Below, in pieces: positions 1 through 42,769 of a stretch of 64,000 nucleotides of DNA. Under the pieces are notes generated by a model, which was not told where the DNA came from, ran no database searches, and saw nothing but the letters and a program-made list of their open reading frames with translations. The DNA lies in contig QPGO01000030.1 in the NCBI GenBank assembly GCA_008632985.1, forward strand, positions 186,001 to 250,000. Direction: 5' to 3'. This DNA comes from Psammoneis japonica. Taxonomy: Eukaryota. The translations under genes and the position numbers were made by a program. Numbering within the stretch: the first letter of the stretch is position 1; every line of letters begins with the position of its first letter.

Positions 1-10
1 GAGGAAACCC

Positions 11-1857
11 ATGATTAACGGACGGCTTAATCTGCAACCCAAGAAATGGATGGACAGGACCCACATGCTGCCCCCGGCACCAGGACCGAACGATCCCCGA
101 GAGGTCAAGAGCGCCGTCCTAGACCACTCATTGCGCACCATTCGTGAAGGGGAAGGTGCTTGGCAAGCCAAGTGTGAACTGATGACCACTCATCTGGGCA
201 CACCGATGGTGATGACGCAAGCAAAACTTAGGATCGCCTCGTTCGACCTGTTGACACACCCCACCTGTGCATGCACGTTTGCAGGTGCAGTTGACTCAAA
301 CGTCAGAAACATCAACGTGCCAGCTGTCGACGGAGCAGCATTCCGGAACACAGCACGTCACGCAGTGTACGACGTAACCATCAACCCCGGCAACGCGGAC
401 CCAGTGCACGCACTTCGCACGCCAGTCCCAGCAGAGACGAGGCGCGTGTACGCGCGCTTGCCACTGATCGGAGGACAACTCCACCCGAACATCAACGGAG
501 CAACGATCCGATTCTTTGGACACGTGCACCAAACCATGCTTGCCGCAAACCAACCCATCGAGCTCAGCCTCAATGCGGAAACCTGCCTCAGCGAAGAGGC
601 CTTCCAAACATGGAAAAAAAGCATCTGCTGCAAGACGCTCTACGAGCACATAGCCCAACTCATGCCGTCCGCCTTCGTCGGAGATGGGGCAATCAAGTCC
701 GCCGCAAATCGATTGCAAGAATGCACCATGGTCACACAAGACCCAGTGACAGGAACCAAGAAAGGCAGATCCACCCAAGAGCATTTTGAGGCATTCTCCA
801 GCATCGCAGCAGAGCTCGACACGAACCACCCATGCCCAGTCAACCTCGCATGCACATGCTGCTACTCCTTGCCAATGAAATTGCAGGAAAAACTCCACAC
901 CAAGGGTCACAGCCCCCCTGAGGTGTGCAACGGGAATGAGGAACAACTGGCAAATCTCAACACAGCCAAGCAAAGGGCAACGGAGTGTGAACTCGAACTC
1001 AAGATAGAACTCGACACTGTCAAGAATGCGGCAAACAGACGAGGACAAAACCAGTCAGTGGTTATGATGGCTAACCCCAACATCGGAACTCACCAATTCC
1101 CAACGGAAACTCCAGCAAGCATTCCCGGATGCGCAGCCATGCCCAACCCTGCCGCCATTCCTGGATGCGCAGCCACCCCCAACAGCGCACACCCTGGAAC
1201 ACAATCGACCACCCCACAAACGGCACAGCCGACACCAGGAACATTGGCCCACAGTTCAGCAGTGCCAATGGCGACGTTCGGCCCAACGCAACTGTCCACA
1301 TTGCTCTCGGATGCAGCACAAAGAGCCCTCACACAAGATGTCAATGTCACCGACGACACCCCATGTGTCATGTTCCTGTCCACAGCCGAGCAAGCCATGC
1401 GCCAGGCCAGCGGCATGACAGCTCCATGCAAATGTTGGGGCTGCGATGGCATGCACAAATGGGCTGACTGTGACAAACGGAACGACCCCAACGCAAAAGC
1501 AAAAGCAATGGTCAAGATGCAAGAGTTGCGAGAACAATGGCGCGAGAAACGCAGGGCGAGGAACTCCTCACACCAACCAGCGTTGAAACGCACCATGTTG
1601 AGCGAACCAGAGGTGACGGAAAACTGGGAGAGGCTTGGATTCCCCAACAGCAAGGTGGCAAAACAGGTGCACACATTAGCTGCCCCAGAAACATCCAACA
1701 AGAGGCGCAAGCAGATCTGCAAGACCATGTCCACCTTGCTCGCCCAGAAAGACGAGGACAGCCAGATCCACGGAACCCCGGATGTCACACTGTTCACGAC
1801 AATTCGAGCAATGCAAGGCACCATCCCAAACGCACCACTCGACATGTCAGCGGATCT
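11..1857 (+). pseudogene. gag-like region of the Gypsy element
   Basis: Long ORF with a CCHC-type knuckle CWGCDGMHKWADC (~1433-1471), lying upstream of pol. It runs into the N-gap. Confidence 0.75.
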
Positions 1858-2184
1858 NNNNNNNNNNNNNNNNNNNNNNNNNNNNNNNNNNNNNNNNNNN
1901 NNNNNNNNNNNNNNNNNNNNNNNNNNNNNNNNNNNNNNNNNNNNNNNNNNNNNNNNNNNNNNNNNNNNNNNNNNNNNNNNNNNNNNNNNNNNNNNNNNNN
2001 NNNNNNNNNNNNNNNNNNNNNNNNNNNNNNNNNNNNNNNNNNNNNNNNNNNNNNNNNNNNNNNNNNNNNNNNNNNNNNNNNNNNNNNNNNNNNNNNNNNN
2101 NNNNNNNNNNNNNNNNNNNNNNNNNNNNNNNNNNNNNNNNNNNNNNNNNNNNNNNNNNNNNNNNNNNNNNNNNNNNNNNNNNNN

Positions 2185-5100
2185 CATCCCCTTTCTAAGG
2201 AAGACAAAGGGAATGTGGTCGTTCGATGAGCCTCCACAACTCCACATCCCGATGCTCAACGCCACATTCAACGTGACGTGTGTGCCACCGTCATGCAGGG
2301 ACCCGCCCCAACGTCGGAACATCCCGTCAATCTCGACCACGCTCTCAACCTGCTCAATTGAGGAAGGACTCGACATCAACGAGCAGGAATGACAACTGGA
2401 GCAGTGTCTGTCGCCGCCCTGTAGGAACCTGTTAATGAAATGCCCATTGCGCACGAGCAGACACAGATTTGGGTCGGTGTCGGCAACACAAGAGACACTG
2501 GCGACACTCAAGACTTGCCAACCTACGGGCATCAAGTCATTTGCGGCATCTTCAGTGACTACAAAGGAGACAGAGGCAGCCAAGAAAATGAGAGACGGTT
2601 CCAAACCTGTGGTGACCGAGAAACGACCGCACCGCCCCCCGATCAAAAGCACATGTGAAGAGCCAGATTGGGAGCCCGACGAATTCTCGCACATGGAAGT
2701 GTTGTTCAGGGAACATGGCAACGTCCCACATAAGAACAAACACGAGATCCCAACCCGAACTGACGTGATCAAATACGACGATCAAAAACACAAGACGGAA
2801 TTTGAAGAAATGATCCAGTGGGATGACTGCCCGGAAGACAAGCGACAGGATGTCGAACAGACACTCAAACAGCACTGGGACGTGTTCGCTCCCGAGGGCA
2901 TGAAAAAGCCGGTGTCAGGCTTCGAGTTTAACATCGATGCTGGACCAATCAAACCTGTTTGTTGCAAGGATCCAAGATGCGGACCACACGAATCAAGAAT
3001 TGTGACGCAGTTGGTCGAAGGTCTGGAGAAAAATGGAATCGTGGAAGACGATTACGGCCCCTGGGGAGCCCTGGTCGTCTTAGCAGCAAAACCGCACCAA
3101 GGACACAAGCATTGGTCAGAGTGCGTCTGGCGGCCATGCGTGTCATGCAGGGCACTGAACGCTGTCACGAGACCATTCGCCTTTCCAACGAGATGATGCG
3201 ATGACGCTGCGAGAGACATTGGGCCGTCCCGACATTTCATCACGATGGACTTACTTTGGGGGCATTGGCAAATGCCACTGTCCGATGCCGCCAAGGAAAA
3301 AAACGGCATTCTTCGCACCCAACGGGAAGAAACACTTCAACCGAATGCCAACGGGTGTCAAGAACGCATGCCAAGCACACCGCTGTGTCATCGAAGCTGT
3401 CAAAAAGGACTGGGAAAACACAGCACGGGAGTTGAACATGGGAGACGTAAAAATGATGAGTGGAAGAGACATCCCAGGATGCGGCAGTCAAAACATCATC
3501 GACGACATCATCTTACACTCCACGCAGACAACGCGGCTCCTCCAGTGCTTCAAAGTGGTCCTGGCGATGTTCCAAAAGTGTCGCATCACCGTGTCACTGA
3601 AAAAGTGTTGTTTCCTCCCGAAAGCAGCGGTGTTCGTCGGACTGGACATAGAACCAGAAGGAAACAAACCGGCAAAAGACAAACTTCCACTGTTTGAGAA
3701 CCTCAGGCTCAAGCGGCCTCTAACTTTTGGAGACCTGCGGTTGTTCATTGGGCTCCTGGGATTCTGCCAAGAATGGATGCCCCTGTGCGAGATCCGAACA
3801 GCACCGTGGCGACGACACCAAAAGAAGATGCCACCCGGCTTGCACACCCAAGAGGAGGAACGCGAGTGTTTAGAAAAGAACTGGTCAGAGAAGGACGAGG
3901 AACTCAGAATCGAATCGCTGGACGAGATCAAACAACGACCCACCTTGACAAGACCAAACTTCAACAGAAGGTTTTACCTCAAAACCGACTTCAGCAAGCA
4001 TGGCGCAGCAGCGGTCTTGTTGCAAGCCGACCCCGACGACCCGGAAGCGCCAGCCGAAGAAGAACGTCTCAAAACACGACCGGCCCCGCGAAGCAAATTC
4101 GAAATGAAACGCAACACCAAGAAACTGCGACTCCGACCCATTGCTTTCTTCTCACAACGGAGCACACAGGCACAAAGCGCTTGCCATTCGCACACAGGAG
4201 AAGTGTGGGCTGGTTTAGTGGGAATGAGGAAATTCAAACGACATTTGCTGGGAAGCGAATTTACCTGGCTTACGGACTGCAACGGAGCCCAAAAGTTCCT
4301 CCACCCCGTCACCGAAGAAATGCTCACGCACCAACACCAGCGATGGCGCATGGAAATGTCGATGTACGATCACACAGGAGAACACAGGGACAATTCCATG
4401 ATGGCCGAGCCCGACATCCTCACCAGATGCAATTGGTGGACGGAAACGTGGCGGTCAGGCGGCGCGGCACAACCGATTGAGACCCGAGAACCTTGCGGAC
4501 CTCATCCTTTCACGAGCATGCTGGCAACGGCAGCCCCCATAAAACACGACCCGATGCCTTTCAGCAACGTGAAGATGCAGGTGCACGGGCCAGCAACCGG
4601 AGCCAAAACACCACTGGCACAACAAGAGAGCAACTCACGAGCGATCACACTGCACAACGCCGCCACCAACAACACAGAAAGCGCATGCGAGGAAATTGGT
4701 GTAGAAGCACTAACAAGTGCACTCATCGAGGACCGAGTCGAACTCAAGTTCAACCCGAACTCCGAGCTGACACCAGCCGGTTGCGCACCCACAACAGAAT
4801 GGCTGGACCAAGTGAAGCAGGACAGCAACGAGCACACATCGCAGGTGGAGTGGCTCATCGCTGCAGACGGCGGAACACAAGACTTAGAATGGGACCAGAA
4901 AGAAATGGATGAATTCAAAGAATTGGCAATTACCTCCAAAGAAAAGCAAAACCTGCAAGCCCCAATCGTCTTTAGGGACCGACGAGACACACACCGAGTC
5001 ACCCCGGAAAACAACCCACACAAGTGGGTAGACACAGAACTCCAGTGGGACAGACTCGAGGTTAAACTGCAAGGCACACGACACGGCAGCCCCACACAAA

Positions 5101-8084
5101 GCTGCCACTCAGTGCTGACAGCAACAAAGGATCCCGAGGTTTTAGAGACGATGCAGTTCGAAGAACAAGAACCCGGCAGCATGTTGCCTTACCTGGAACA
5201 ATGGGACAGTTCCACCGACGACATCACGAGAGAACGCGAACTCGCCGAAGTCGAACGACAGCTGCCAGACGTGCTTCCAGACTCACCACACAAACCCAGA
5301 GCAACAAAGAGGGTGCAGAGACCCAACGAGGCAGTGTGGACACCAGTGTACGACGTCGAGCACCCAGCCCCACCCTTGCGGCTCAAGGAAAACACGTGGT
5401 ACGAAAGCCCATTCGCAATCGAAGTGCACGACCACTTCGAGCACGAAAGCGGAATCCGCAGGATCAGACTCCACGAGCTCGTCAACATGATGGGATTCCA
5501 AGGTGTCACGGCGGAAAGGCTCAAGCTGATGCATCACGACACAGTCCTCGACCACCCAGCGGTCACACCACCAAAACAAGTGGTCAGTGCAGCATTGCAA
5601 GGACTGATTTTAGCAGAGCAAAGGGCACAATTACGGACACAAGAGGTCTTGCCAGCCAGAGACGCAAGCCCAATGGAGATGCTGCTAACCGCACTCCAAT
5701 CTACACCGGCATGGGAGTTGAATGGCATTGCCACCCTTCCCTTGCCATCAAAGAGCGACTGGCAAGAAGCCTCCCAGCAAGAACCGGATGTCAAACCATG
5801 CATCGACGCACTAGAAGCGGGCACCAAGCTTGACAAGTCCAAATTAATGAACAAGGAGTTCAGCAAGGAATTCCAACACGGAAGACTCGGGACCGAGGAG
5901 GGTGTCCTGTGCCGGCACGAAGGGAAGAAGCAAAGCCTGTTGAGACAAATCAGGACAAGAGCAGTGCCAAAAAGATGCAGGCAGACCGTCTTCTCAGCAC
6001 TGCACGTCTCACCTTGTGCAGGACACTCAAGCTACGAAAAAACCTGCTGGAAGATCGCCGCGAGGTTTTGGTGGCCGGCAATGGCTGCAAATGTGAGGGA
6101 ATGGACGTTGGGATGTGCAATGTGCCAAGCAGTCAATGTCACTAGCCACGAAGCACAACAAATCATGAAGACCATGCAAGCCGACGCACCGTTCGACACA
6201 GCAGTTATGGACGTGTGGACACCTGGACGAGTGGCAGTGAGAAAGAATGCGGCAAATGCATTGGGCTGCCTAGACTCAATGACAGGATTCGCAAGCATCA
6301 CATTTCTTACCTCTTGCACCTCAGAGGACGCAGCAAGAGCCGCGTTCCACGCGTTCTTCGTCCCCCACGGTCTGCCGAGACTCGCACTCGTAGACGCAGG
6401 GCGACAGTTCGCCGGACTCGTGTTGCAGCTGTGCAGCCTGTTGGGCATGCAAGCCCACCCAGCAACAAGAGAGAACCACAAGGCCATTTTGTGTGAGAGG
6501 TTCTTTAGACACCTGAACAAGATGGAGCACATGCAAACGGCAGATTGCCAATCCTCAAACGAATGGACGCTCGGAGCTGCTTTCGCGACCTGCGCATGGA
6601 ACAGCGCACCGGTGGAAGGCACTGACATCGTGAGAAGCAGAGCAGCAATGGGACGCGACTTCCCTTTTCCTGTCGACACTCACCAGGAAGCAACAGTCCC
6701 AAGGGAGAACACCAATCAGGGAGAGCAAGTCCCAGAACACATGAGCGCGACCTTCCCTCTCCTTGCAAAGCAGCGACTCACATTGAAGCTGCTCACAGAA
6801 GACCGCAGAAACCATCACAGAACACTCGCCAACAAAAACCGTTCAGGAAACAAGTTCCAACCAGGTGATCTGGCAATCGTAAGGAAACAAGTGCAAACGT
6901 CAGAAAAAGGCCCGGGGAAACTGATGATCAAAGCAAGAGGGCCACACAGAGTGTTGGAGAAGATGCACGAAGGAGCACACAACATCCAACGAATGCCTTT
7001 CACAGAAGGCATCAGACGAGTTGGCAAAACATGCAAAGAAAGCTCAGCACGTGTGGAAGCCATGCCTTCGACGCTGGCACTCCATAAGACCACCAACGGT
7101 GCAGACACTCGCATGGCAACGATAGAACGCCCTGTGGTAAACCACCCCCTGGAGAACACGTTGGGCACAGTGGATTTCGGCAGATGCGCCAAGACGGCAC
7201 CAGAAAACAACTTCGCTCATGACAAGATTGAGGATGTGCACCCCACCTTCCAGATGTGTGACGACGACGACAACAATGAAAACAACGACAGGGACAATAG
7301 CGCCGCAACAACTCCAACTGTCAACGATGAAGCAGAAAATGATGCCAGCCGAAGCGACGGCAACAACGTCCTGCAGGATGCGCAGACAGACGACACCACC
7401 GAAACCGGCCCATCATCAGCATCCACAAGTGCATCACCAGAGACAGTTGCTGCCGACGCCGAAAACACCAATGCCAAGCTCAGACGATCAAACAGAAGGA
7501 AACGGACACCTTCGAAACTACAAGATGATGACGATGTCAGGAAACGAGGACGCGCGAACAACAGGGCGATGCACGAAAACCTGTGGAACAAGGTGCAAGA
7601 ATCTCGAGACAAACTGTTTTTCATCAGTCACACCGCCAAGGGAACCACTCGCCGTTGCTGGCATCTTGTTCAGGTGGACCCAGCAAACACCGACCCGACC
7701 ATGGCGAAGCATTTTGGACAATGTTGTGTGGTGTGGTACATTCGACACCAAGGGGACAGCACCACCAGAAAAACAAGAAACTGTCGGTTTTGGCCAGAGA
7801 CACACGAGCTTTGTACAGACAACACTCTTGGGCCTATGATGCAAGTCAAGCCAGGGAAAGCAAAGGCCTTTTTAGAACGGCACCCACACACGCACCAAGC
7901 CCACTCGGACGAAATAGATTTGACGAAGCAAAGCATCCTCGGGCCTTTCAACTTCGCACCACCAAAAGATCACCAACAAGAAAGCCACCGAATCAGTGAT
8001 GCACATTGGACAGAACTACAAGCCCTTGCACGACTGCAACACATGCGGACGGACGACACAGACGAAGTGATGCCATTGCGCTGA
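2185..8084 (+). pseudogene. pol: RT - RNase H - inserted MTase-like domain - integrase - C-terminal extension
   Basis: RT motifs GPWGALVVL, WRPCVSCRALN, FITMDLLWGHWQ, NIIDDIIL. RNase H motifs FYLKTDFS and FTWLTDC. Integrase HHCC zinc finger (H-x6-H...CAMC, ~6000-6125), core MDVW/VDAG/CERFF, and a GPY-like ARGPHRV. In-frame TGA at 2390 and 3194 (probably CGA->TGA), and a frame change in the A-run at ~3297-3303. Confidence 0.9.
4638..5620 (+). other. C5 DNA-methyltransferase-like domain inserted in pol, catalytically degenerate
   Basis: Motif order matches C5 MTases: ITLHNAATNNTESACEEIG (motif I position), VEWLIAADGG (IV), APIVFRD (VI), LQGTRHGSPTQSCHSVL (VIII), VYDVEHPAPPL (TRD), IRRIRLHELVNMMGF (IX), AVTPPKQVVSAALQGL (X). 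Confidence 0.65.
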
Positions 8085-8610
8085 GTGGTGAATCTGTGTG
8101 ATGGACACCATCATGCACCCTCGCGTCTCACCCGTTTGAACTTTTCCTTTGTGCTCACAATAACTTTAGGATAACTTTACATTGCTGGACGAGCATCCAC
8201 TAGACTGAGTGCTGTGCACACTGACCTTGTGGAGGTTGTTTGGAGCAGGCTGGAGGAGTCGACACTCCAAGCACGAAGCTGAGCAAGGAATGAGCCAGGA
8301 ACAGCTAAATCCCATGTCCCACTCCAGTCATCGCGATGACCTGCAAAAGGAGGCGCGAATCAATGGACAAACAACAAGTAAGATGACTTGCAGGTTGGCA
8401 CTTGTTGGTCCTGACGCGCAGCGACATTGTGCCGTGCACCCACGGACGGACCCTGGCTGGCTCATGAAAGGCTGTGACGCGGAAGACTTGGACAGCAGAC
8501 CTCTAAGCACCGCATTCACGACACTGGTGCCCCCTTGAGTAAGCTTAGTGTAGGGAGGAGAGGGACGCCTCAACTCTCATGACTTCGCAAGCGCCTGGGA
8601 ATACACTGGT

Positions 8611-8618
8611 AGAGGGGA
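8611..8618 (+). other. polypurine tract (PPT)
   Basis: AGAGGGGA immediately precedes TGTAACG. Confidence 0.7.
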
Positions 8619-9102: not shown

Positions 9103-9171
9103 ACCGCAACACTGTAACCTACAACCATCGAAGAAGGGATACCGTACTTACCATATCTGCCAGAAAGAAAC

Positions 9172-12049: not shown

Positions 12050-14545
12050 CTACGGCGTCAATTCACGACACAATACAAACGCGACGACCGACACAGCTCC
12101 AGAGAACTGGCAGTCTCTGGTAGAGCCAGCTCCCACCTGCTGCATCCATAGAGTGGCAGGGGACAATGCACTGCTACACAGCTGGCACAGCACTTGTGCC
12201 CCCGTGCAGCACCTCCACCAGCAGGGCCCTGCTCCTGGCACTCTCTCTCAAGGGAGAGCAGACTGCTGCTGCTGTGCACAGAGCCAGAAAATGTGCAGTG
12301 TGCAAGAACGCACCATGAGCTGCTGCAACGTTGAAGCTGTGGGGACAAACAAACACAACAAACAAACACGTTTTGATCATTCTCAAATGCTGAGAATTCC
12401 AAAATGATGTTGAGAACCTCAGTTTGGAGAACTCTCACAAGAGCCCCAAGCTCGACAAGGCCATCATGATGCACACGGTTGCATGGGTGCAAAGAGTGGT
12501 CTCTCAACAAAAGATTTGGTGCTGGAATTTTTGTGGGAACCATGCATCATGAGACAAGTTTGCCAGCCTCTCTGTGAATCTTCAGCTGCTTTGGACTTCT
12601 GTTGGCGCAGCAAGTCGCCCCCAAGCACCAGGCAACAAGTGACATCAACCCATGAGTTCTTGCTGGGGCCGGAGGACAACTTGACTTTTTTGCTTGGGGG
12701 GGGGGCACAAGGTGCAGCTTTGTCCTTGCAAAGCACCAATCAATTGACAACAAGGGACAGGAAAGCTGGGGGGGGCAATTGATGGCCCCGCTCCCTTTTT
12801 CTCTTCTTTTTTTGCCCCGTTGATGTTTTCTGCTGGCAAGCAAGGAGTGGCCTTGCATCTTCCTTTTGCAATGCAGGCAGGGGACAATCTCAGGACATTT
12901 GGCACCTTGAAGTCTCTCCTCCTGTGCAGTGTTGATGTGAGAGGTGGAGGTGGCGCAGCATGATTGTTGAACTTTGGTGCTGGCGCGGGTGTGCCACGGA
13001 GCTGAGCAACTCTTTTGTGCTCACACCTTCAATGTGACAGTTGTTTTGTTGTTGTCACATTGGCTGTTTTCTTCTGGAATCTTGCTTGCTCCTCTGGTGA
13101 GTTGAGAGAGTGTCTGCGCATGACATTCTGGAGAGGAGCGTCAAATGACAGCATTTCCTGAGCTCTGGCTTGGGTTTTTTCTCTTGTGTCAAGACAAGTG
13201 CTGTCGCACCCCAAGTTCACACAAATTGTGCTGCAGCCATGACCCATTTGTGTGTGATCTTTTCTTTTTATTTTCCCAGCTGGTGATGCAAAGATGCTTC
13301 TTTGGCACGTGCAGTGGTCATGACATGTGGTTTGTCAAAGGAGAAGTCACAAGTGTGCACTGAAGCCATGTGGCTGGCAGCAAGCAACAAAGCCAACCAG
13401 AGTTGTTTCCAAGGAGCAGATGCAAGCCCATGACCTTGCTTCAACATTTGGCAGAGTTGGCACTGAGTGATTTGTGGCACATTTCAGCACAAGGCAAAAC
13501 ATGCAGGCAAATGAACTCTCCACATTTCCAAATTTTGCTTGCCACTCATGCAACACACCCCACAACACAACAAAAAAGTCTGTGGACAAGCAAACAAGAA
13601 ACATGAAGCACTCCACTGTGAAATTAGCTGCACACAGCAGCAGCTGTTTTTTGCCATGTGGCAACAAAAACAGAGCCATTGGAAGCAGCACATTTCATTT
13701 TTTGTTGCCGTCTCATTCTCTTGCCCTTGTCAAGGGGGAAGCAAGGAGCTCTGCTTCATTTTTCTCAAAGAAGAAGCGTGCACCTTTTTGTCATGAAGCA
13801 ATTTGCAAATGTGCACCATGGCAACCCAGCATGACAGCAATGTCATGTCTTTGTTGCTCATCCCCAGTTGCCTCCATGCAAGCTGTGTCCATGTTTGTGT
13901 TCGCCATTTTTTCATGGCCCCACCATCAATTTGATTGATGCAGCAAGGAGCCCATGCTTCTTTCATTGCATCTAAAGCAATGTCCCCTGTGTGATCATTT
14001 GATTGATTTTTGCTCCCTCTTTCTTGTGGTGTGTGGGTGGGAAGAGATGCTGCAGCCTGATCTTGTCCCTGGTGCTTGTGCTGGATTTTCACTGATGGTC
14101 AGTGCAGTTCTTGTGATTGAACCTGTGGCAATAGTTTGTGCATTTCTTCATTTGGGTTGCTGCGATGATGTGGTTGCTCTTTCCTCCCTTCTTTTGTCTC
14201 TCAATTGCAGAAGCAGCTTGAAAATGGAGTGTGGAGTCATTGCCCAAGCCAGAACTGACTTTTGGTCAAGATCTAGAGCTTTTCTGCTTGATCACTTGCT
14301 CCAACAGGATGTGTCTTGCTGTGACAGCTGTGCAAATTGCACTGAGATCCTTGAGAATGTCTTGGGAATGTTTTGGCGTCTTTGTCTTGGGAATGCTTTT
14401 GGCGTCTTTGCCATGTGCGGCACTTGCTGGCAGCCTTTTTTCTGCTGGCAGCCTCGTTTCCTGACAATGTCACACATGCCAAACTCTTCTCTCAAAGAGA
14501 CCGACAACTGGCTCCTGAAGAAACACCCGGTGGCGAGCATGGGTC
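12050..14545. other. TpA- and CpG-depleted hypermutated block of unidentified origin
   Basis: Only a handful of TA seen by eye (e.g. 13625, 13973, 14132, 14274). TG/CA-rich, with overlapping Cys/His-rich ORFs in all frames. Confidence 0.8.
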
Positions 14546-14786
14546 GCGTATTTTGTTTTTTGAGAAGATTTCTCTCGGCCTTTAGTAACAAACAAACAAG
14601 GTTACTGTAGGTTTTTTTTTAAACGGGGCAACATTGTGTGCAAGTGCAAGCAGGTTCTTAGACAACTGAGAAAGTTAATGTTCGTTTGCGGACTATGACG
14701 ATACCTGCCATACCGCCAAACCGAGTGAACGCGATTGAAATCGTCTCGTTCTCTATTTTACAAATACAGAAAGGTGAGAGGTGTAC

Positions 14787-24739: not shown

Positions 24740-26265
24740 ATGGTATGATCATTTTACTATGCGATTTTGTGTACAAAACCTGCCCGCCCGCTTTTGATTC
24801 GTGATAGACGGATGGTTTTGAACAAATTTATGACGATACATCGTTGGTTCGTAGAAACTACGTAACACCTGGTATGTCGAAGCAATCACATCCGAGCAAG
24901 CCTTTGAATCTCGATCACGTGGAAGCTCTCACAATTCGAAAGTTTGACCGATCAATCAAGCTAAGCATCGTCTTCCGTCTTTACCGTCAATCATCATGCA
25001 GGCCTCTCTTCTTCTCTTCACCATGACGCTCTTTACCATCTTCAGCGGCGCTATTCCATTCCCCATCGAACATGCGCTCTTTGCCTTTGCCGTCCTCATC
25101 GCGTTGAAGCAAGCCGTTCAACTTTCGAACGTCGACAAGACGTGCGTCGCGCCTTTCCGAGTCCCTGAGACCAAGCCATCCAAGTTGATTCCGATCCAGA
25201 TTCCCGCCGAGCAGTCGAACAATAGAAAGAGAAAGCGATCGAGCACTGCCAGCTGTTCTGACGATCTTGACGACTCTTCACGTGAAACGAAAGTGCCCAA
25301 AACAGCCATGACCACTTACAAACGCACCATCCGTAAAGTCCGCAAGACTAAAAAACGTTCGAAGGACAAGGAACGTGAATCACCCTTTGACCGTCGAAAG
25401 ATACAAGCGTTGGCACGTCAAAAAATCATCAACGAACGTCGCTTTGGCACAAGCGAAAAAGGCGAAAAGCCCGCTACTCAGAAGAAGCTCCGCCGACGTC
25501 GACCCGCCGAAGATGTTCCGCTTCTAATTCGCATGCGTCAAGAAGTGCAAGCCGCCAAGCGCAAGGAAAGGGTCTGGGCTAATCGTCGAAAAGCCGCCTA
25601 AGGACAAACAAGGATCAGTCAATATTCATCCTGCGGCAGAGTCTATTTGTGTTATGGCATCATTACATTTTCAAGACGGGTTCTCGAGGGAAGGATTGCA
25701 ACTTAGAATAGGATTGAATGGAGTTTCTGGTTTACCGATTCGCAGCAACTCGACGATTCCGCGGAAGAATTCTACTTCTTAAGAAGAGGTATCTCTGATG
25801 CCGTGATCCATTTTGGTGAAGCAACTGAAAAGAATCAGTCAGTTGTGACCAACTCACCGGATCATAGGGTTCAATATGCGGTTTGTATCGTTGTTGGGAA
25901 GTAAACATGTGAAGAATTCTACTTGACCGATTCACCGAATCACAGAATTCGCTATCGATTAGAAGTAAAAATCCAGAAAACAATTCAGAAGTTTAGAACA
26001 GAACAATAAGTACATAAAGCGATCCTACTCAAAACGACCATTCTTTCTTTTACTAAGACTCCTCAAAAGAGCTGACGTCGTAGTGTGTACCGGTACGGGG
26101 GACGTTTGTTCAACTCGTGTTTAAAAAATCCAGTTTTTTTGTCATCTTAGTTTCTTGCCTTTTTTATTTGTTATCACCCACATTCGTCAACGAGTATTGC
26201 AGAAGTACTTGCATCTTCGGTGCGCACCACTAGTTGATCTGTGGTCGTAGCTTGAACAAGGTACA
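24740..26265 (+). repeat. segmental duplication, copy 1
   Basis: Colinear, highly similar to ~38810-40252, including upstream, CDS and downstream sequence. Confidence 0.9.
24996..25601 (+). CDS. hypothetical protein, hydrophobic N-terminus and basic C-terminus (paralog 1)
   Basis: 201-aa ORF kept open in both duplicate copies, with an in-frame indel. Confidence 0.65.
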   Translation: MQASLLLFTMTLFTIFSGAIPFPIEHALFAFAVLIALKQAVQLSNVDKTCVAPFRVPETKPSKLIPIQIPAEQSNNRKRKRSSTASCSDDLDDSSRETKVPKTAMTTYKRTIRKVRKTKKRSKDKERESPFDRRKIQALARQKIINERRFGTSEKGEKPATQKKLRRRRPAEDVPLLIRMRQEVQAAKRKERVWANRRKAA

Positions 26266-27653: not shown

Positions 27654-30600
27654 GGTATGGTTGCTTTTTGCTCTTCTGAGTTTAGACTACCGGTAAAGTA
27701 CGGGTACCGGCATGGGGGGGGGGGGGGGGGCGGAGGTGTTCCATGCAGTTCCATGCATGTTTCCTTTGACCGACGCCAGCCCGACGACGCCGCACACATC
27801 ATAACATGCTGAAGGCGCATGCACGGGCGGACAGGGCCCTGCTCTAGCTAGATTGACAGACAACCGCGTCCTGCACAAAATGCGACACAGGACTTGCACA
27901 TCGCTTTTCTGACTGCTCCCAGACACACAGATTGATGGAAGGCAAGCTTGGATGAAAGATGATTTGCTGGCACTGGTGATGATTCCATCTCCAGCCCCAA
28001 TCTGGATGGCAGAGCCACCCAGCAGAGCAAGGGGGGCCAGAAGCTGGGGGGCAGCTGGCTCTGTTGTGCGGTTGCTCTGCTCTTTTCTTGCTCATCAACA
28101 AGAGTGAGTGGCTGCAAAGGCAGAAGAGAAAGCATGGCAGATGGCCAACAAGGAATCAACCAATGACTTCAGTGCGTGCTGATCAAGGGGTGGGTGGGTG
28201 GTCTGCACGCTGTCATCAGAGATGCTGCACGCGGTGCAAAGCTGGAGCGAGCAACACTTGCTTGCTCCTTTTCTTCTTGCTGCACTCGTGGCACCACACA
28301 CTGCAGACTGCAGATTGACATGGAAGGCAAGCCAACAAAGCAACTTTTTGCATGAAAGACAATTTGCTGACCCTGATGACTCCCTCTCCAGCTCTCAAGC
28401 TGGGCAGCAGATCTGGCCAGCAGTGCCCATGAGATGCCTTTGTCAAGAAGAGGCAGCACGGAGTTGGTTGGGAGAGAGGTGCTTTTGGGGGGGGGGGGGG
28501 GGCAAGAAATGCCCATGCTGGGGCTGAGGACAAAGGCACTGCCATTGAGCACATTTTGAGTGAGGTTGCACATGGCAGGTTGGCTTGTCACTTGAGCTTG
28601 GAGATGCCACAAACATCTTGCCCAACCCCCAAAAGCCAGCTGAGGCCAACCAGTGCACACCCACTGGCGGCCATGAGCAACTGGGCTGATGTGTCAGAGA
28701 GGTGAAAAAACCAGGTCAGCAGGGCCTGTGGTGGCAGCAGCAATCTTTTGCACTTCTGTGGTGTCAGCAAGGTGGCGACAGAGAGCGCCAGGTGCCATTT
28801 TCAAAGCAGGCCAGTGAAGAAGTGCCAAGCATCTGGAAGGGCCCTGCAAGCATGCTGCAAGTGTTGTGCGCGGCAAACAAGAAAAAATGCTGGGCAAAGG
28901 TTGGGGTTGTCTGATCTGCCAGAGCTGGCAGCCTTGCCTTGGATGGTGTTTTTTGTGCAGGGAATGTGTGAGCAGCTGCAATGAGGCAAGGGTGGCAGCA
29001 TTGAGGGCCAGGCTGGGTTGGGGGTGCCTGTCCAGGTGCAACTGGCTGGAACTGAGGAGCAGATTGATGGACCTGGGTGGCGTCATCTCCTGGACAGAGC
29101 AAAGAAAAGAGGCTGCTTTGTTGCTGCTGGAGTGGGTGGAAAAAGCTGTGGTGTGAATCACCCAGCATGGTGCCTGCACCCAGCACTGGTTTTGCTTGAG
29201 ATCCAGCAGTGCATCCCATCATTTGTGTTCTTGTTGCAGCAGCAGACTTGTCAGACAAGTCTGAAATCCTCCTCATTGCTGAGGGTGCTTCTTGGTGGCC
29301 AATCAACTGCAGGGGTGTCATCAGCTGTGTGCAAGCACATGCAGGGTTGTGCTGTGTGGGGCAAGCAGCACTCCAGCACAGACTCAGATGGGAGGCAAAC
29401 TTGCAGAGGGCCAACTTGGTGCAGAAGTTGGGCCAAGTGTGCCAGCAGGCACTGGGTGGCACTGGGTCTGCAATTGGCAACTCCAAATTGGGCAGCACAG
29501 TGGTGGGCAGCACTTCTCAATCAACCAGAGGTGCAATGTGGGCACTGGTGTCCAGGGGTGCTGCCAAGACTGGGCAGTCTGCTTTGGTGAGCGGAAGGCA
29601 TCAAAATGACAGAAGAAAGCAATGCCAGCAAGGCGTTGCAGGCAAAAAGCACCAGCAGTGCCAGCAGAGGCAGTTGAGTTGGCTGGCTGTGAAAATCATG
29701 GAGGATGAGGCCATTGTGACAGCTGTGCAGTTGATGAAAGGCTTGGCATTAGAGGAGCACTGCATCAGCCAGCATTGATCCATGCAGCACTCCAGGCTGT
29801 GCTGTGGGAACTTTGCATGCCCCACCAAGTGTTTGCTGGTGGGTGCATTGTGCCTTGGTTGCTGTGCAGAAAAATGGGGTTGGCAAGCTCTTTCAACCCA
29901 ACAGCAATGAGAGGCAGCTCCCCAAGCAGCAGCAAGAAGGGAGAAAGCAATGCATGGCTTTGCATGTCCTCAGGACAAACATGTCAAGGTGGCAAAATGT
30001 GTTGACAAAAGGAGTTCATGCACAACACATGGATGTTGTTGGCTTGCCCCATGTGGTTGCCACCTTGAGACAATGACCCAGCATCAGGTGCAAGGCAGCC
30101 ACATGATTTGTTGCTTGCGCCACTCCAAGTGCTTGTTCAAATGCCCGCTTGGAGCAAGTGCTGTGAACAGCAAGAGCTGGAGGTCTGAAAACAGCATGAA
30201 AACACGGCCACCTGCATTTTCACCCATGCTGTGTCAGAGTGTGCTGAAGGCCCAGCTGGGGTGAGAGCCTCAATGTGGATGTGAGCATCAGCTGGGCATT
30301 TGTGCTCCTGCTGCCAGTGTTGTGGCAATGAGTGCAAGCACTGCCACACCACTGAGCATCCACACACCTTGGGGCAACAAATCAATGGCATGTCAGTCAT
30401 TGATGACAGCCCTCTGCTGGTGGGAGAGTGGCTCCACATGCTCATTGCTCCCATGGCTGGGTTGGGCCCACCATGTGGTCATTGCCCTCGGGAAATGCAA
30501 CACATGCAGAAATGCGTGAACATGGCTGGCCACAGTCAGCAGCATGTTGTGATCCAGTTCAGCCACTCTTCCCAGCCACCAAGGGCATGCAAGGGTTGCA

Positions 30601-33120
30601 TCACAGTTGCACCTGACTGTGCCAGAGCTGCAAAGTGGGTTGAGAGTTCACACATGCGAGAGTGCCAGGGTGTGGCTGGGAAACAGTGGTCTGGGTGTTG
30701 CCACATGATCATTGCCTGAGGTGTTGGCAGGGATGTCAGCAGGCAAGGCTGGGGTGCCTGAGAGGTGGCTGTTCTGTGGGAAGTGCCACCAGCTTGCACT
30801 CTCAGATTGCTTTGGCACAGCATTGCAATTTGCAAGTTCAGCTCTTTGACAATCACTGCTTGCATGCCACACCAACACATTCCAACAACTTTCCCATGTT
30901 TTCCCAATTCTGGTTTGACACATGGCTCTTTCTTCCTGGGGATGCCCAACTCAAGAAAAGCACAAGCAGCACACTGGTGCTGTTGAGTGCAGCTCTGCTG
31001 GCCCTGTGTGTGCTGAAGCACCTCCTGAAGATTTTGCAAGATGTTGACAAGTGATGGAGCTCTTCTCAACAAAAAGACAGTCTGCCTGAAGACCCCCAGG
31101 AACCACCTGTCCCCAAGTTGCTGCTCAGCTCTTGTTGATGGCAACATTGCAGATGGTTGGCCCAACAACTCCATTGGTTTGGTCAAGACAGACAGCACCA
31201 GCATGTCATCTTGAGGCACTGCCACTGGTGGTGGTGGAGCAGGCAGTCCAACAGCAAGTGCTGCCATCACTGCACTGCAGGTGGTTGCTGATTTCTTTGT
31301 CAAGGTGGTCAAACAAGTTGTTTTTTAAGTGTGCCTCTGAACACTCATTCTTCTGCAACTGCCAAGCCCCCATCATGGTTGGCAGCATGGGCACTTTCAA
31401 CTCCAACTAAAAAGTGGCATGGTGTGCTGAAAGACTGAAGGTTGGCTCTCAGATCTCACCACTCAAACTGACCCAAAGTTCCCTGTGTGGTGCTGCTGCA
31501 CAGGGCACAAGTCAACTGAGAAGTCCAAGAAGGGTGGCAATTTTGACTCACTGGCTGCACTGTGGGCCATTCTTTTTTGATGCATCATGGTGGGATGGGT
31601 GCAATTTCACACCCCATGCCAGATCCCACTGGCCCAATGTGTGCACAGCTTGTTTCATCAAAGAGAAAAGAGAGTGTGCTTTTGACCATCTGTTGAAAGA
31701 GTCCAAGACAAGACAAGGACAAGATTGAGCTGCAGCTCACAAAGTGTGACAAGTGCAACAGCAACAATTGCCACAACATGGCAGCTCTCTGTCACAGCTG
31801 CACTGAGGCAACTCTTTTCAAAAGGAAGACAATGAGCCCTTTCCCACTCAGTGGTGGCAACTCTTTAAGATGTTTTGCACCCAAGTCATCACCTGTTTTC
31901 AGAAGGTCCAGGATGAGATCTGCAAAAAGCAACATCCTGCCACACCTGCAATCCAACAAAGAACCAGCTTTTCTCACTGTGGCCCCCCCACCCATGCAAC
32001 AACAATCTCACCTGGATTTCTTGAAATCCTCCCTTTTTCCTGGTGGGCCAGATGGCAAAGACTTTTGCTCAGGTCTCTGCACCAAACCAAGAACCTGCTG
32101 AAGAAAAAGTTGACAAAGAAAAAGTTGATGGAGCTTGCAAGTGTGCCAAAGGATGATGCAGATTGTGAGCCACTGGCTGACAACCTTGTCAGTGCCTCCA
32201 TTTTTGAGCTTGTCACTGACGGGTGCTGCGGGCAGTGCAATGAAAGCAAGTGGTTGTTGGCTTGCAATGCCAAGTGTGCAAAGATTCCACCTGGCAGTCT
32301 CAGAGCCCTCGTCATGTGTGCCAGCTCAGTGGAGCCACAGAGACACCTGAGATTGACTCACTTGTCCAGTGCAAGGTTGGCGTCAAGGTGTCATGGAGAC
32401 AATGACAAAATGTGGTGGCAGGCAGTTGTCACAACTGCTGCCACCAGGCACGTGAACATTCACAATCTGTCAGAGCCATGCTGCTGGCCATGGATTGGCT
32501 GGTGGACACCATGGCAGCAATGGTGGCAGCTGCAACAAGGGTGTGGTGGCAGCTGCAACAGAGTTGGGGCAACAACAGCAGCAGCAGCAATGATTGCTGC
32601 TTGACTCCAGCAACACAGGCATGGAATTCCCCCCCCCCCAACAGCCAGCACCAACCATGGCCAGCAACCCAGCGCACAGATGATTTGCTCCAGTCACATG
32701 CACAACAACAAAAGGAGGCAAAAATGGACATTTTGTGCATTGCTTTGCATGCTTGCTCCACATTGGTGGCTTCTTGCATCTCCTCCTGGTGCTGCATCTG
32801 TGAAAAAAAGCTTTTGTGCAAATGCAAACAATTTCTCTCCAGCACATGCAAGACCCTCCTCTGTTTGGCCACTGCAAAACACCCACTTTTCAATGTTTGT
32901 TTGTTTGAAAGGAGGAGGTGCACAACCCCAACAGAAACAGTCATTGACCTTGACAGCAAATCTGTCCCTGCCGTTGTTCTTGTGGGTGGAAAAATCAACA
33001 AAATTTTCCAAAAGCGTGTCAACAACAAGTGAGAAAATGGACATTTTTTGTGCTTTGCAAACAACAGCTTTCTGTCCAAGCAGACTCTGAGCATTGTGAC
33101 ATCATGCTTTGCCTGCTGCT

Positions 33121-34185
33121 GTGTCATGCTTTGTTGATCAAGTCTGCAGCCCTGCTTTTGCCCATGACATCATGCTTGCAAAGCTGGCTGCCTTGCGTGC
33201 AAAAAGTGTCTGCTTTCAAGATGTTCTGCCATGTGTTGGCTGGGCCAAGGAGGAAAAAGTGTGAAGAGCTTTTGACTGTGGTGTGCACCACAACTTTTCT
33301 TGTTGTTGCAAAAGAAGAAGGGGATGTCAAGCAAATGTGCTGTTCTCCCAATCTGCCTGATTTTGGTCTTTTTCCAAGATGCAACACAGCTTCTGCCACT
33401 TCCCACACATGGCAACATCATTTGCAATTGTTTCTCACTCAATGTTCCAGGTTGATTGGCACAACACAGCACATTTTGCAAGTGCTGGTGTGTCATGCTT
33501 TGTTCATCAGGTCTGCAGCCCTCTGTTTTTGCCCACAAAATGCCTGCAAAGCAGGCTGCCTGGTGTGCAAACAGCACCTGCTTTCAAAATGTTCTGCCAT
33601 GTGTTGACTGCACCAAGGAGGTAAAAGTGTGAAGAGCTTTTGACTGTGGTGTGCACCACAACTTTTCTTGTTTGCATGAAAGAAGTGCTGCCATCCCAAT
33701 CTGCCTGATTTTGTTTCTTTCCAGGATGCAGCACAGCTTCCACCACTTCCCACACATGACAACATCATTTGCAATTGTTTCTCACTCAACATTCCAGGTC
33801 AATTTGCACAACACAGCACACTTTGCAAGTGCTGGTGTGTCATGCTTGTTCATCAGGTCTGCAGCCCTCTGTTTGTGCTCATGAAATGCTTGCAAAGCAG
33901 GCTGCCTGGCATGCAAATGGCACCTGCTTTCAAAATGTTCTACTGTGTGTTGACTGCACCAAGGAGGCAAAAGTGTGAAGAGCTTTTGACTGTGTTGTGC
34001 ACCACAACTTTTCTTGATGGCACAAAAGAAGTGCTGTTCTCCCAATCTGCCTGATGTTGGTTTTTGTTTCAGGATGCAGCACAGCTTCTGCCACTTCCCA
34101 CACATGGCAACATCATTTGCAATTGTTTCTCATTCAAGAACATTCCAGATTGATTTGCACAGCACAGCACATTTGGCAAGTCATG
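33121..34185. repeat. three tandem copies of a ~350-370 bp unit
   Basis: Unit start gtgtcatgct(t)tgtt.atca.gtctgcagccc at ~33121, ~33490 and ~33837. Confidence 0.88.
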
Positions 34186-35500
34186 CAACACTCTTTTGTG
34201 AGTCCTGCATGCCAAGCAACAAGTGGAACATGGCACAACAATGGAGACCAGGACATCAGAAAAACAGGTGACAGCATGCCCTGTGCATGAAAAATTGAAA
34301 AGAAGATGCAAAATGTCAAAAGATCCACAACATCAAGCGGTTGCAAGAAAGTCAGTTGACAACGTTGTTGGAGATGATGAGATCAAAATGACTCCTGCAC
34401 CGGAAATGCAAAGAAACAGTCATTGGCATTTCACACACTTGCACCACAGGCTTGTGCATGAAATCAGCCTGGAACCCAAAGGCAAGCCACATGTCACATG
34501 CTCGTTCTGCCTTTTCAAAAGGACAAGCCAGCCATTCATGATGTCACCGGTGCAATCTCTCTGTTCTTCCCACTTGTGCACAACACGGGCTGACTTTCAA
34601 TGCTCCCATGGCAGCAGCGGTGCTTGTTCAATGGCTTGTCTAACAAGAGCCTGATGGGATCAATGCTCCAGCTCTCTGTTTCCATTGTGTCATTCTCAGA
34701 ATTGTGGAGGACAAATGCAACATGTTTGTTTTCATGCATCCACGTGCCAAAGGTCAGAATTGACAAAAACCAAATGCCCCACGAACCAAAGCATGGATTG
34801 GATGGACCACCAAGAGCACTGTTGATGCCAGTGCACTCACAGATGAACCACAAAAACAAACCCAAAACAGACATGGCACAAAAGCCTTCCACTTGTCTCC
34901 AATCCAAGTTCAGTTTCCAGCCTCAACAAAGATGAATTCTCAGTGGCTTGTTGGAAAGACAATGCACGCAAGTGACACTCAAGAGTGACACAACCATGGC
35001 AGAAAAGAATGTTCCCAACACCTTGTTCCATTCATGTTGTGGCACTTGCTGAACAACCCCTTCTAGCAAGATTTCCAATTCACCCCGATTTGTGTGGAGT
35101 TCTAGAATGGAACATGCCTCCACCAAACTGAAAACCAGGATGGGAGCACACCACCTGCAAATGGTTTCATGCTTGTTGTTTTGGACCATGTCGACAAGCA
35201 GTGGCAAGTTGGCACCCATCCTCCATGCACTGCCTGATGTTGACAGCCACACTGGCAAAGGCAATCAATGTTGCAAAGCAGGGCCCCAGACATTTGGAGC
35301 AACCTTGCCAGTGGAAAAGGTGCTGGCACAAATGTGCAAGGCACCTGTCCAAAAGAGCAGTGTGCCAATCAACAGGGCCAGTTCCCAGCAACTGCCATCA
35401 TGAAAGACAATGTTTCCAGAATGGTGGAAATGAGACCAAGTCAAAGTGAACCACCAAGACAAAGACTGACATGCCCACAGCTGCAGCCAACATGACCACG

Positions 35501-36089
35501 GCTCCATCTAACTTCCCACTAAAGAGCAAGTGCTGTCAGCACCAGAAAACAAATGATGGTCTTTCCACGAATTGATTGTGTCTCCAGGAACATTCTCACC
35601 AAATGCATGAGCAAATTTGCTGTCATTGTTTTCATTGCCATTGGTTTCTTCTTCCAACCCACATTGTCGCATGACTTGAACACTGTCCTTGTCATCACCA
35701 TCAACACAAAACCAGATGGCCAAGACAAGCATGACAACACTTGCCACCAACATGAACAGAGGTGTCCCTGCAACCATGGTGAACCCCAAATGTCATCATG
35801 GCTCCATCTGACTTCCCGCCAAAGAGCAAGTGCTGTCAGCATCAGAAAAAAATGACAGTCTTTCCACAAATCAATTCTGTCAATGTTCTCACCAAATGCA
35901 TGGGCAAACATGTTGTCATTGTTTTTGTCCCCCTTGGTTTCTTCTTCCAACCCATGTTGTCACACAACTTGAACACTGTCCTCATCATTGCCATTGACAC
36001 AAAACAGGATGGCCAAGACAAGCATGACAATGCTTGCCACCAACATGAACAGGCATCCCTGCAATCATGGTGAACCCCAAATGTCATCA
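35501..36089. repeat. two tandem copies of a ~300 bp unit
   Basis: gctccatct.acttccc at 35501 and 35801; both copies end in gaaccccaaatgtcatca. Confidence 0.88.
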
Positions 36090-36169
36090 CAACTCATGTG
36101 CTGCACTGCAGCAATTGATTGCTGCCAGCAGTGTGATGCAGGGAACAACAAAATCCAACCACACCTGCA

Positions 36170-37904: not shown

Positions 37905-38085
37905 GATGACAACCCAGCTTCTTCTGGATGATGGCAACATTCACAGTCATCTGCCAATGGCTGCTGTGTGGCTGCTTTGTTTGAGTTTGGGGGGGGAGCT
38001 GATGGCAACCCAAGAGCTTCCTCCAGATGACAGCAACATTCACAGTCTGCCAATGACTGCCATGTGGCTGCTCTGTGTGAGTGTG
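37905..38085. repeat. ~100 bp tandem duplication
   Basis: caacattcacagtc..tgccaatg.ctgc..tgtggctgct occurs twice. Confidence 0.7.
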
Positions 38086-42681: not shown

Positions 42682-42769
42682 TGTTGCTTCCGTGATAAAG
42701 TACGTATGTACAGTGTGAATTATGAACACAGGAAATTATTTGTCATCACGTTGCAGCGATTCTTACTTC

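Follow-up and report, generated by a model that had tools for sequence, protein, structure and literature searches.

Loss of TpA by transition in a Ty3/Gypsy retrotransposon copy and in sharply bounded blocks of a diatom chromosome

Introduction

Hypermutation confined to the dinucleotide TpA is known from the chlorarachniophyte Bigelowiella natans, where it strikes integrated viral DNA (Mettrop et al., bioRxiv 10.64898/2026.01.13.699255, April 2026). According to the main text of this preprint, 231 of 302 nuclear mutations in mutation-accumulation lines were located in two integrated viral regions. Virtually all mutations of these regions were A>G or T>C, all were at TpA, and 210 of 211 were AT>GC; per site and generation they arose at a rate of about 6e-7, and the range for de novo mutations in culture lines is about 1e-7 to 1e-6. 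The same text reports 324 TpA-depleted coding sequences, enriched in reverse-transcriptase and transposase domains, together with 124 TpA-poor clusters, and proposes an ADAT2-like protein as the agent. Diatoms, retrotransposons, CpG and flanking bases are not mentioned in it. Here we analyze a stretch of 64,000 nucleotides (nt) from the diatom Psammoneis japonica (assembly GCA_008632985.1, contig QPGO01000030.1, positions 186,001 to 250,000), henceforth the window. Judged by its sequence, the part from position 1 to about 8530 is a dead, degenerate copy of a diatom Ty3/Gypsy (GyDi-like) long terminal repeat (LTR) retrotransposon; the diatom Ty3/Gypsy group which includes this element is named GyDi in PMC2806351. 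In this element, and far more completely in four further blocks of the window, TpA has been replaced by TpG and CpA.

A base change of the same kind is known at the level of RNA. The TadA enzyme of Escherichia coli has TACG as its editing site in mRNA, and each of the 12 edited sites in open reading frames (ORFs) recodes Tyr (TAC) to Cys (TGC), as stated in PMC5630033 (Genome Res 2017). A literature search, which left most subscription journals outside its reach, found no report of TpA-directed hypermutation or of a joint erasure of TA and CG in diatoms.

The comparisons were drawn within the 64-kb window, with the addition of sequences of related elements and of contigs built from reads of the same organism. 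They show a TpA-specific transition process which acted on both strands of chromosomal DNA, in sharply bounded regions, and faster than CpG decay. Our reading is that a dead Gypsy copy was hit in the chromosome by region-targeted hypermutation of TpA to TpG or CpA, and that the process was completed in four other blocks in which CpG decayed as well. We assign to it a probability of roughly 0.77.

Tyrosine loss in the pol region

The element shows the layout of Ty3/Gypsy, with gag upstream of pol. A gag-like ORF (2..2392, plus strand) is open at the start of the window and is interrupted by an assembly gap of 327 N (1858-2184); its TA observed/expected ratio (o/e) is 0.11-0.22 per kb. It contains a CCHC knuckle, C-x2-C-x4-H-x4-C, at 1433-1471. 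The N-terminal part of pol with the first reverse transcriptase (RT) motifs was located on the plus strand in frame 2 (2528..3296) by tblastn of relatives and by translation. The remainder is a plus-strand ORF of 1627 amino acids (aa) in frame 3 (3201..8084), in which the remaining part of RT is followed by RNase H, by the zinc domain and putative core of the integrase, and by a C-terminal region that is conserved. A database search with this ORF returned 31 homologs, the best of them 43% identical over 98% of the query; among the 31 the diatom Fragilaria crotonensis is named. Pfam places RT_RNaseH at residues 253-389 and Integrase_H2C2 at 922-979 of the ORF, and the succession of RT, RNase H and integrase zinc domain is the Gypsy order; the relatives to which 98% of the query aligns have these domains as well. 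RVT_1 at residues 33-148 scores 28.0 bits, just below the cut-off of 29.6, because the first RT motifs are located in the other frame. The integrase core PF00665 was not reported for the 1627-aa ORF at E <= 0.01, and in a precomputed list only some relatives carry it. The invariant acidic columns D1004, D1065 and E1099 are retained in the element; in our own reading they probably constitute the DDE triad.

A sequence-only reading of the window had proposed that conserved tyrosines of this pol are systematically Cys or His, and had named seven motifs. All seven are present on the plus strand: PRCGP (2972-2986), CVSCRALN (3137-3160), RHFITMD (3230-3250) and WGHWQ (3257-3271) in frame 2, LLGFCQ (3753-3770), GPHRV (6939-6953) and WHLVQV (7659-7676) in frame 3. 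The Cys and His codons at these positions are TGC/TGT or CAC/CAT, in agreement with the proposed conversion of TAY to TGY or CAY. For an alignment against 22 relatives the two frames were joined and the stop was set to X. The relatives bear out the expected Tyr for five of the motifs: it is found in 15 of 15 non-gap relatives for PRCGP, in 13 of 15 for VSCRALN, in 22 of 22 for LLGFCQ, in 20 of 21 for GPHRV and in 15 of 20 for WHLVQV. The other two are weak examples since the relatives are mixed, both at RHFITMD (Tyr 6, His 4, Phe 4, Cys 1) and at WGHWQ (Phe 9, Tyr 8).

The pattern extends over the whole of pol. Where 70% or more of the 22 relatives share a Tyr, which is the case in 17 columns, the element has Cys 10 times and His 5 times, i.e., in 15 of 17, next to one Phe and one Tyr. 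A threshold of 50% yields 39 columns, and the residues of the element are then Cys 13, His 12, Phe 6, Trp 3 and Tyr 1, with 4 others. As a control, ten relatives of like divergence were each left out and scored in the same way: they kept 130 of 191 conserved Tyr and replaced Tyr mostly by Phe, with 0-1 Tyr>Cys and 0-2 Tyr>His each. The difference between element and control relatives in Tyr loss is significant (Fisher p = 5e-7). The 1627-aa ORF contains exactly 8 Tyr (0.5%), where about 8 had been counted by hand, vs 1.6-4.0% in the 31 relatives. Cys is raised to 2.5%, and Ile is lowered to 3.0% vs mostly 5-7% in the homologs.

The element departs from the consensus of the relatives at 158 conserved columns. 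Seventy of these departures are explicable by a single transition, 40 require a transversion and 48 more than one change. The 70 comprise TA>TG 19, TA>CA 12, CG>CA 9, CG>TG 2 and 28 other transitions; where the ancestral codon was ambiguous a TA or CG explanation had priority, which somewhat favors these classes. A few first-base changes after a T are also among the codon changes. Thus, the proposed direction, TA to TG or CA on both strands, was recovered (19 and 12 codon changes, respectively; Tyr>Cys 13, Tyr>His 12). Of the codon changes which had been expected to dominate, Tyr to Cys or His does so; Ile>Met/Thr, Val>Ala and Leu>Pro/Ser are present at lower numbers. The alignment was also searched for relatives which share the Cys and His residues, the finding that would speak for a normal family trait; the relatives have Tyr instead. 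Overall, the earlier interpretation is supported.

The distribution of the replacements along pol is uneven. From the 5' end up to position 4428 Tyr was replaced mainly by Cys (Cys 9, His 2), and in the remaining 3' part mainly by His (Cys 4, His 10). The contrast between these halves has a Fisher p of 0.015, with the split picked after the counts had been seen. A strand bias which switches along the element is a possible cause; a runs test over all TG and CA gave no support for clustering. On the coding strand between 2528 and 8081 inferred G>A changes (14 outside CpG and 9 at CpG) greatly exceed C>T changes (3 and 2). This excess may be part of the A-richness which is widespread in such retroelements, or it may reflect a separate minus-strand process.

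Composition of the element, its relatives and host DNA

The element (1-8530) has a TA o/e of 0.204 and a CG o/e of 0.82. In host stretches of the window the respective values are 0.54-0.65 and 0.97-1.03, and in pol DNA from 39 related metagenome loci 0.41-0.73 and 0.66-1.24. Not one of 804 1-kb windows from 77 related metagenome loci has a TA o/e below 0.25; the patterns used to find these loci demanded an intact Tyr motif, which disfavored mutated copies. A scan of viral contigs returned no relative of the element. By these comparisons the loss in the element amounts to between about two thirds and nine tenths of TA and to about a fifth of CG. Per site, TA loss exceeds CG loss about 6-fold, an estimate which is based on 31 TA-type vs 11 CG-type changes and on the site frequencies of the relatives.

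An A-rich, T-poor pol is a trait of the family: in 25 of the 39 related loci A is 0.26-0.36 and T 0.16-0.25, and the other 14 are C- and T-rich. Therefore hypermutation is not needed to explain this aspect of the composition. The 25 loci are also what can be said in favor of the view that the Gypsy lineage is functional with Cys and His in place of Tyr and avoids TA by selection. The Tyr residues, however, are kept across the 22 relatives, none of the 39 related pol regions has a TA o/e below 0.41, the copy in the window carries a stop codon and a frameshift, and the same loss of TA prevails in non-coding blocks. Among the explanations considered here we accord this one the least credence; it is next to negligible.

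The effect on reading frames follows from the genetic code. A change of TA to TG or CA generates no stop from any sense codon. TAY becomes TGY or CAY, NTA becomes NTG or NCA, and a TA at the border of two codons changes either the third-position T to C or the first-position A to G. Of the stop codons TAG is removed and TAA is converted into CAA or TGA. On both strands taken together TAA plus TAG amount to 12.3 per kb in the element, to 2.4-3.5 in the four blocks described below and to 35.8-38.5 in host DNA; therefore long ORFs remain open on both strands. The proposal that the element was inactivated by missense with its ORFs left open is thus correct in principle as far as TA is concerned. 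It fails in two places, the only breaks in pol. One is an in-frame TGA (3197..3199, plus strand) where the relatives have Arg, i.e., a CpG-type nonsense change of CGA to TGA. The other is a run of seven A (3297..3303, plus strand) at which pol shifts from frame 2 to frame 3.

Beyond pol the 3' end of the element is non-coding (8085..8530) and represents a candidate 3' LTR; the 5' end of the element is situated outside the window. TA remains sparse up to about 8504-8540, and the contig with the read depth of a repeat stops at 8648. At 8160-8180, where the 3' non-coding region starts, surviving TA are clustered in two copies of a 10-bp direct repeat.

Four blocks depleted of TA and CG

The loss of TA is not restricted to the element. 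Four further blocks, numbered 2 to 5, total 22 kb: block 2 at 12180..14548 (TA o/e 0.033, CG o/e 0.23), block 3 at 27850..38564 (0.024, i.e., 16 TA in 10.7 kb, and 0.12), block 4 at 42765..50629 (0.032 and 0.155) and block 5 at 57135..58568 (0.055 and 0.46, with a normal CG density from about 58247). TG and CA are present at 1.65-2.0 times expectation, and the pyrimidine-purine steps are reduced nearly to TG and CA. G+C is steady near 0.49-0.50, which is to be expected if the gain from TA>TG/CA and the loss from CG>TG/CA cancel. The borders are sharp to within tens of bases, and those of TA and CG mostly agree to within about 50-300 bp. The Gypsy element and the four blocks jointly account for about half of the window; when DNA with no more than 3 TA per 300 bp is counted as TA-poor, it covers about 31 of 64 kb.

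What the blocks once contained was sought in three ways. None of 73 block ORFs of at least 110 aa matched Pfam at E <= 0.01. When 31 Gypsy pol proteins were used as tblastn queries, no match past position 8600 was better than E = 0.1, i.e., there was no Gypsy pol remnant in the blocks. A self-comparison of the window recoded as purines and pyrimidines, a recoding which hides transitions, yielded no LTR-like pairs above a shuffled control (top control score 96.8 bits). We infer that the blocks are older insertions which are now past recognition.

Some local details of the blocks are recorded here. Two patches, 36275-36550 within block 3 and 58247-58568 at the right edge of block 5, lack TA and have normal CG, which is the state of the Gypsy element. 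The latter is positioned a short way upstream of a 3-beta-hydroxysteroid-dehydrogenase-like gene (58645-59847). Two G runs of about 18-20 (27712-27731 and 28485-28503) occur close to the left border of block 3, and a short motif of about 70-100 nt is repeated in the same area (27927-28025 and 28327-28423). The right border of block 3 coincides exactly with a small cluster of surviving TA, a repeat of about 5-6 bp which contains TA (38565-38636).

Change in place, in chromosomal DNA

Block 3 contains a sequence for which unmutated counterparts are available. The purine/pyrimidine self-comparison and a three-way alignment identified a fragment at 37314..37646 (plus strand) as a hypermutated copy of the start of a pair of paralogs outside the block, 24743..26263 and 38809..40250 (both plus strand; the second is just outside block 3). 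The two are 84% identical to each other and served as reference and control. At positions where both outside paralogs agree, to which this test was restricted, 9 of 9 TA were changed in the fragment, 6 to TG and 3 to CA. Of 11 CG sites 5 became CA, 4 TG and 2 something else. All other sites accumulated 25 transitions and 13 transversions in 167. The outside paralogs themselves, a single pair, diverge normally, with 90 transitions and 68 transversions, and from this ordinary divergence it follows that duplication alone is not the trigger.

The 1.5-kb paralogs flank block 3 and have normal TA and CG. In each of them an ORF of about 200 aa (24996-25601 and 39006-39665) gave no match to Pfam. A weak fourth match to them is located at about 27234-27437, just left of block 3 (104 bits vs the control maximum of 96.8).

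Further evidence is provided by two tandem arrays in block 3, one with units of about 365 bp (33087..34209) and one with units of about 300 bp (35419..36224). In both the units differ from each other by TG<->CA pairs, which number 7, 7, 11 and 3 in the pairwise comparisons, a total of 28 in 1078 aligned nt. The host paralogs show one such pair in 1424 nt (p = 8e-10 vs the tandem units). A tandem duplication is a DNA event which occurs in place. Therefore the ancestral TA and CG were resolved independently in each unit afterwards, in chromosomal DNA. The balance sheet of the blocks agrees with a simple conversion: relative to host DNA the mixed flanking contexts have 49.3 TA plus CG per kb fewer, and 49.6 TG plus CA per kb have been gained.

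These data bear on the possibility that the Gypsy element was edited prior to integration, i.e., that ADAR- or ADAT-like editing of its RNA, of a sense/antisense duplex or of its cDNA was fixed by reverse transcription, with the blocks as an unrelated matter. Retroelement RNA and cDNA are classic deaminase substrates, a 5' U preference suits A-to-I editors, and the TA depletion stops about at the end of the element. Nevertheless, the changes are spread about evenly over both strands (Tyr>Cys 13, Tyr>His 12), an outcome which cannot arise if only plus-strand RNA is edited. The same dinucleotide and the same hierarchy of flanking bases prevail in blocks without retroelement content, and there the tandem units and the gene fragment were changed after duplication at the DNA level, an argument which concerns the blocks and not the Gypsy element itself. 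We consider editing before integration improbable, with odds well below one in ten. An in-place process in the chromosome is the reading we retain.

A single-strand deaminase which acts in 'showers' should leave strand-coordinated clusters. Runs tests of TG vs CA in the element and in the blocks gave z values from -1.8 to +1.3 and no support for such clusters.

Reads of the same organism offered an additional view of the element and of block 2. Contigs built from them, of which 86 were aligned and 31 are less than 90% alike, contain other copies of the element. Against the window these show 323 transitions and 73 transversions. Among the 40 of 401 differences which were listed, 15 are transitions within the element: 6 of CG type, 4 of TA type, 4 in two TG<->CA pairs and 1 other.

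The reads also address whether the pattern might be produced by sequencing or assembly, with modified bases of silenced DNA miscalled in such a way that TA and CG merely appear as TG or CA. This notion draws on the circumstance that the read platform is not on record and that the confirming run perhaps represents the assembly's own sample. It is countered by the contigs, which were built independently from 31-letter words of the run and which agree with the element and with block 2 in nearly every letter: over 8802-20000 there are 17 deviating letters and 8 gaps, and within the element each contig deviates in 0-6 letters. In addition, a miscalled palindromic step would not split cleanly into TG at one site and CA at another, and both the pattern at the protein level and the divergence between copies are consistent with real mutation. 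An artefact is therefore very improbable, more so than editing before integration.

A preference for 5'-TAY

The survival of TA varies with the bases next to it. With host density as the baseline, RTAY (R, purine; Y, pyrimidine) survives at 0.085 in the element and at 0 in the blocks (none found, about 255 expected). The mixed contexts RTAR and YTAY survive at 0.225 and 0.026, and YTAR at 0.51 and 0.18, respectively. When the relatives are taken as the baseline the survival in the element is 0.09, 0.33 and 0.69 in the same order. The ratio of RTAY to YTAR is 0:26 in the blocks vs 369:206 in host DNA (p = 7e-12). Per strand, A before a pyrimidine is lost about 3.5 times faster than A before a purine; TAT is depleted at least as much as TAC. 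Since the survival of the mixed class is approximately the geometric mean of the other two, two independent strand-wise rates fit the data.

The rule predicts which product a mixed site should yield, i.e., YTAY>YTGY and RTAR>RCAR. In the blocks the predicted products are gained at 33.4 per kb vs 16.2 per kb for the other class (p = 2e-4), and of the 6 mixed sites of the three-way alignment 5 conform to the TAY rule. In pol, the base which precedes a Tyr codon had no effect on the choice between Cys and His (after R: Cys 11, His 8; after Y: Cys 2, His 4).

Proposed mechanism

On this basis one may envisage the following course of events. A transition hypermutation of chromosomal DNA would rewrite the palindromic step TpA to TpG or CpA, depending on which strand is hit. 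In coding DNA the outcome would be Tyr (TAY) to Cys or His, Ile (ATA) to Met or Thr and Val (GTA) to Ala, never a stop. In blocks 2 to 5 the TpA process would have run to completion. CpG of the blocks would have decayed to TpG and CpA, most simply via deamination of methylated cytosine. This loss would then be the ordinary decay of methylated cytosine, and CpG methylation of diatom transposons is stated in PMC2806351 and PMC9998398.

As to the chemistry, we tentatively favor, at somewhat less than even odds, a TadA/ADAT2-like enzyme which would deaminate adenine of DNA to hypoxanthine and would be guided to silenced mobile DNA, in line with the proposal made for B. natans. The strict requirement for a 5' T together with the preference for a 3' pyrimidine bears a resemblance to the anticodon-loop context of the TadA/ADAT enzymes.

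The same in-place process could operate on thymine instead. In that case the T of 5'-RTA would be modified or oxidized by an enzyme of the TET/JBP type to a derivative like 5-hydroxymethyl- or 5-formyluracil. Such a modified T mispairs with G, which gives T>C. The signature is strand-symmetric, and A>G at TAY is indistinguishable from T>C at RTA on the other strand. Further, TA and, if methylated, CG are both 5-methylpyrimidine-purine steps, and they have been erased from the same blocks with borders which mostly agree to within about 50-300 bp. On the other hand, no sign of such a T modification in diatoms turned up in this analysis, the sole experimental precedent is framed as adenine deamination in the text of the B. 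natans preprint, and the element lost TA with little loss of CG, which demonstrates that the two erasures are kinetically separate. Thymine chemistry appears unlikely, although less remote than editing before integration.

Several points weigh against hypermutation in the chromosome as we read it. The blocks have no recognizable transposon or viral content, and mobile DNA as the target is shown only for the Gypsy element. Co-erasure of CpG is absent from the B. natans main text, and two separate processes may be superimposed in the blocks. The confirming read set may come from the same sample as the assembly of the window, and its platform is not on record. Six Tyr codons which now follow a pyrimidine became Cys in 2 and His in 4 cases, where mostly Cys is predicted (probability about 0.02 if Cys is expected at 78%). 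The product asymmetry in the element, 15.3 per kb, is just over the spread of the relatives themselves (-7.5 to 13.2), a baseline too noisy to rely on. Finally, the comparison with other copies covers 40 of 401 read-level differences.

A more far-reaching proposal is that diatoms and chlorarachniophytes share an old genome defence of the SAR lineage (stramenopiles, alveolates, rhizarians). A deaminase derived from TadA/ADAT2 would act on chromosomal DNA, would read 5'-TAY and would be steered to silenced mobile or foreign DNA. Together with the decay of methylated CpG it would remove all palindromic pyrimidine-purine steps and leave 'TG/CA-only' DNA which hides ancient insertions. This is speculative, and we hold it to be slightly less probable than the enzymatic assignment by itself. 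If true, 'TG/CA-only' DNA can occupy much of a chromosomal region in a diatom, in the present case about 31 of 64 kb, and the ancient insertions within it escape all homology-based annotation.

Host genes and transcripts in the window

Host genes are also present in the window. A dynamin gene on the minus strand (53096-54694) encodes a protein which is 64-71% identical to proteins from the diatoms Attheya, Nitzschia, Chaetoceros, Seminavis and Fragilariopsis. Other genes code for a SAP-domain protein, a Tsr3-like ribosome biogenesis protein, an ERGIC/ERV protein and a HATPase_c protein. One run from the same sample behaves like spliced RNA: over 8700-20000 its contigs reveal minus-strand introns of 69-117 nt with GT..AG ends, located in host genes at 11.3-12.0, 14.7-15.6 and 16.4-17.2 kb. 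The run covers host genes and does not cover 1-8671 or 12007-14674; missing cover in such a run is no evidence.

Significance

A comparison of two lineages makes it possible to look for the responsible gene, which should be shared by both and lacking in unaffected algae. The roughly 3.5-fold preference for 5'-TAY over 5'-TAR is a concrete biochemical prediction for candidate deaminases. The signature as such, with TA and CG near zero and a doubling of TG and CA, serves as a flag for ancient insertions of mobile or viral origin which homology searches do not see. It bears on transposon annotation, on estimates of mutation rates and on gene prediction in diatom genomes, as the near absence of TAA and TAG stops in erased DNA gives rise to long spurious ORFs.

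Comparison with known systems

Fungal repeat-induced point mutation (RIP) shares with the present case a hypermutation by transitions, mobile DNA riddled with missense changes and a dinucleotide signature; the comparison with RIP is also drawn in 10.64898/2026.01.13.699255. The direction is opposite. RIP changes C to T mainly at CpA and thereby creates TpA and stop codons, whereas here TpA is destroyed and stops vanish. RIP was rejected as an explanation: TA is depleted, TAA plus TAG are lowered, and the 84%-identical pair of outside paralogs (one pair) is free of hypermutation.

The tRNA deaminases TadA and ADAT2-3, which act on A34, resemble the present process in that the target A follows T or U and precedes a pyrimidine, and in that the same change of Tyr to Cys results. 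These enzymes act on RNA loops. The changes in the window are fixed in DNA on both strands, and the depletion of TAT is no weaker than that of TAC.

ADAR, an enzyme of animals, prefers a 3' G. In the window a 3' pyrimidine is preferred, TpA alone is affected and nearly all of it is lost, and the loss went on after duplications at the DNA level. Hyper-editing of repeat double-stranded RNA by ADAR in animals is similar in that A is changed to G, with a 5' U preference and with repeats as the target, as set out in the main text of 10.64898/2026.01.13.699255. RNA editing of the ADAR type was discarded for the blocks, given that the changes in the tandem units and in a gene fragment are later than their duplication as DNA; this applies to block 3 and not to the Gypsy element itself.

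The decay of CpG in methylated transposons matches the change of CG to TG and CA in the blocks and, in milder form, in the element. It cannot account for the loss of TA.

The closest case is B. natans. As far as the main text of the preprint goes, both systems have in common that TpA is changed to TpG and CpA on both strands in discrete regions with the remainder normal, that TA falls as TG plus CA rise, and that reverse-transcriptase or transposase sequences are among the TpA-depleted DNA. The differences are equally evident. The host is a diatom, i.e., a stramenopile, and not a chlorarachniophyte, and the identified target is an LTR retrotransposon. TA o/e in the blocks is 0.02-0.06, whereas a value of 0.45 is given for the giant-virus insert of B. 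natans. CpG has been erased from the same blocks, and the preprint's main text contains no mention of CpG. A 3'-pyrimidine preference is evident here; the words 'flanking', 'context' and 'trinucleotide' are absent from that main text, from which the supplements may differ. The evidence is historical in the diatom and stems from mutation-accumulation lines in B. natans. In contrast to the 210 of 211 AT>GC changes reported there, CG>TG/CA accounts for 11 of 70 single-transition changes in the element, and CG loss is near-total in the blocks. A historical record can add slow CpG decay which remains invisible in an experiment of one year.

Taken together, the evidence supports the conclusion that the process described here represents a second, distant host for a hypermutation which has so far been known from one preprint on one chlorarachniophyte. 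To the known case it adds the co-erasure of CpG, saturation and the preference for a 3' pyrimidine.

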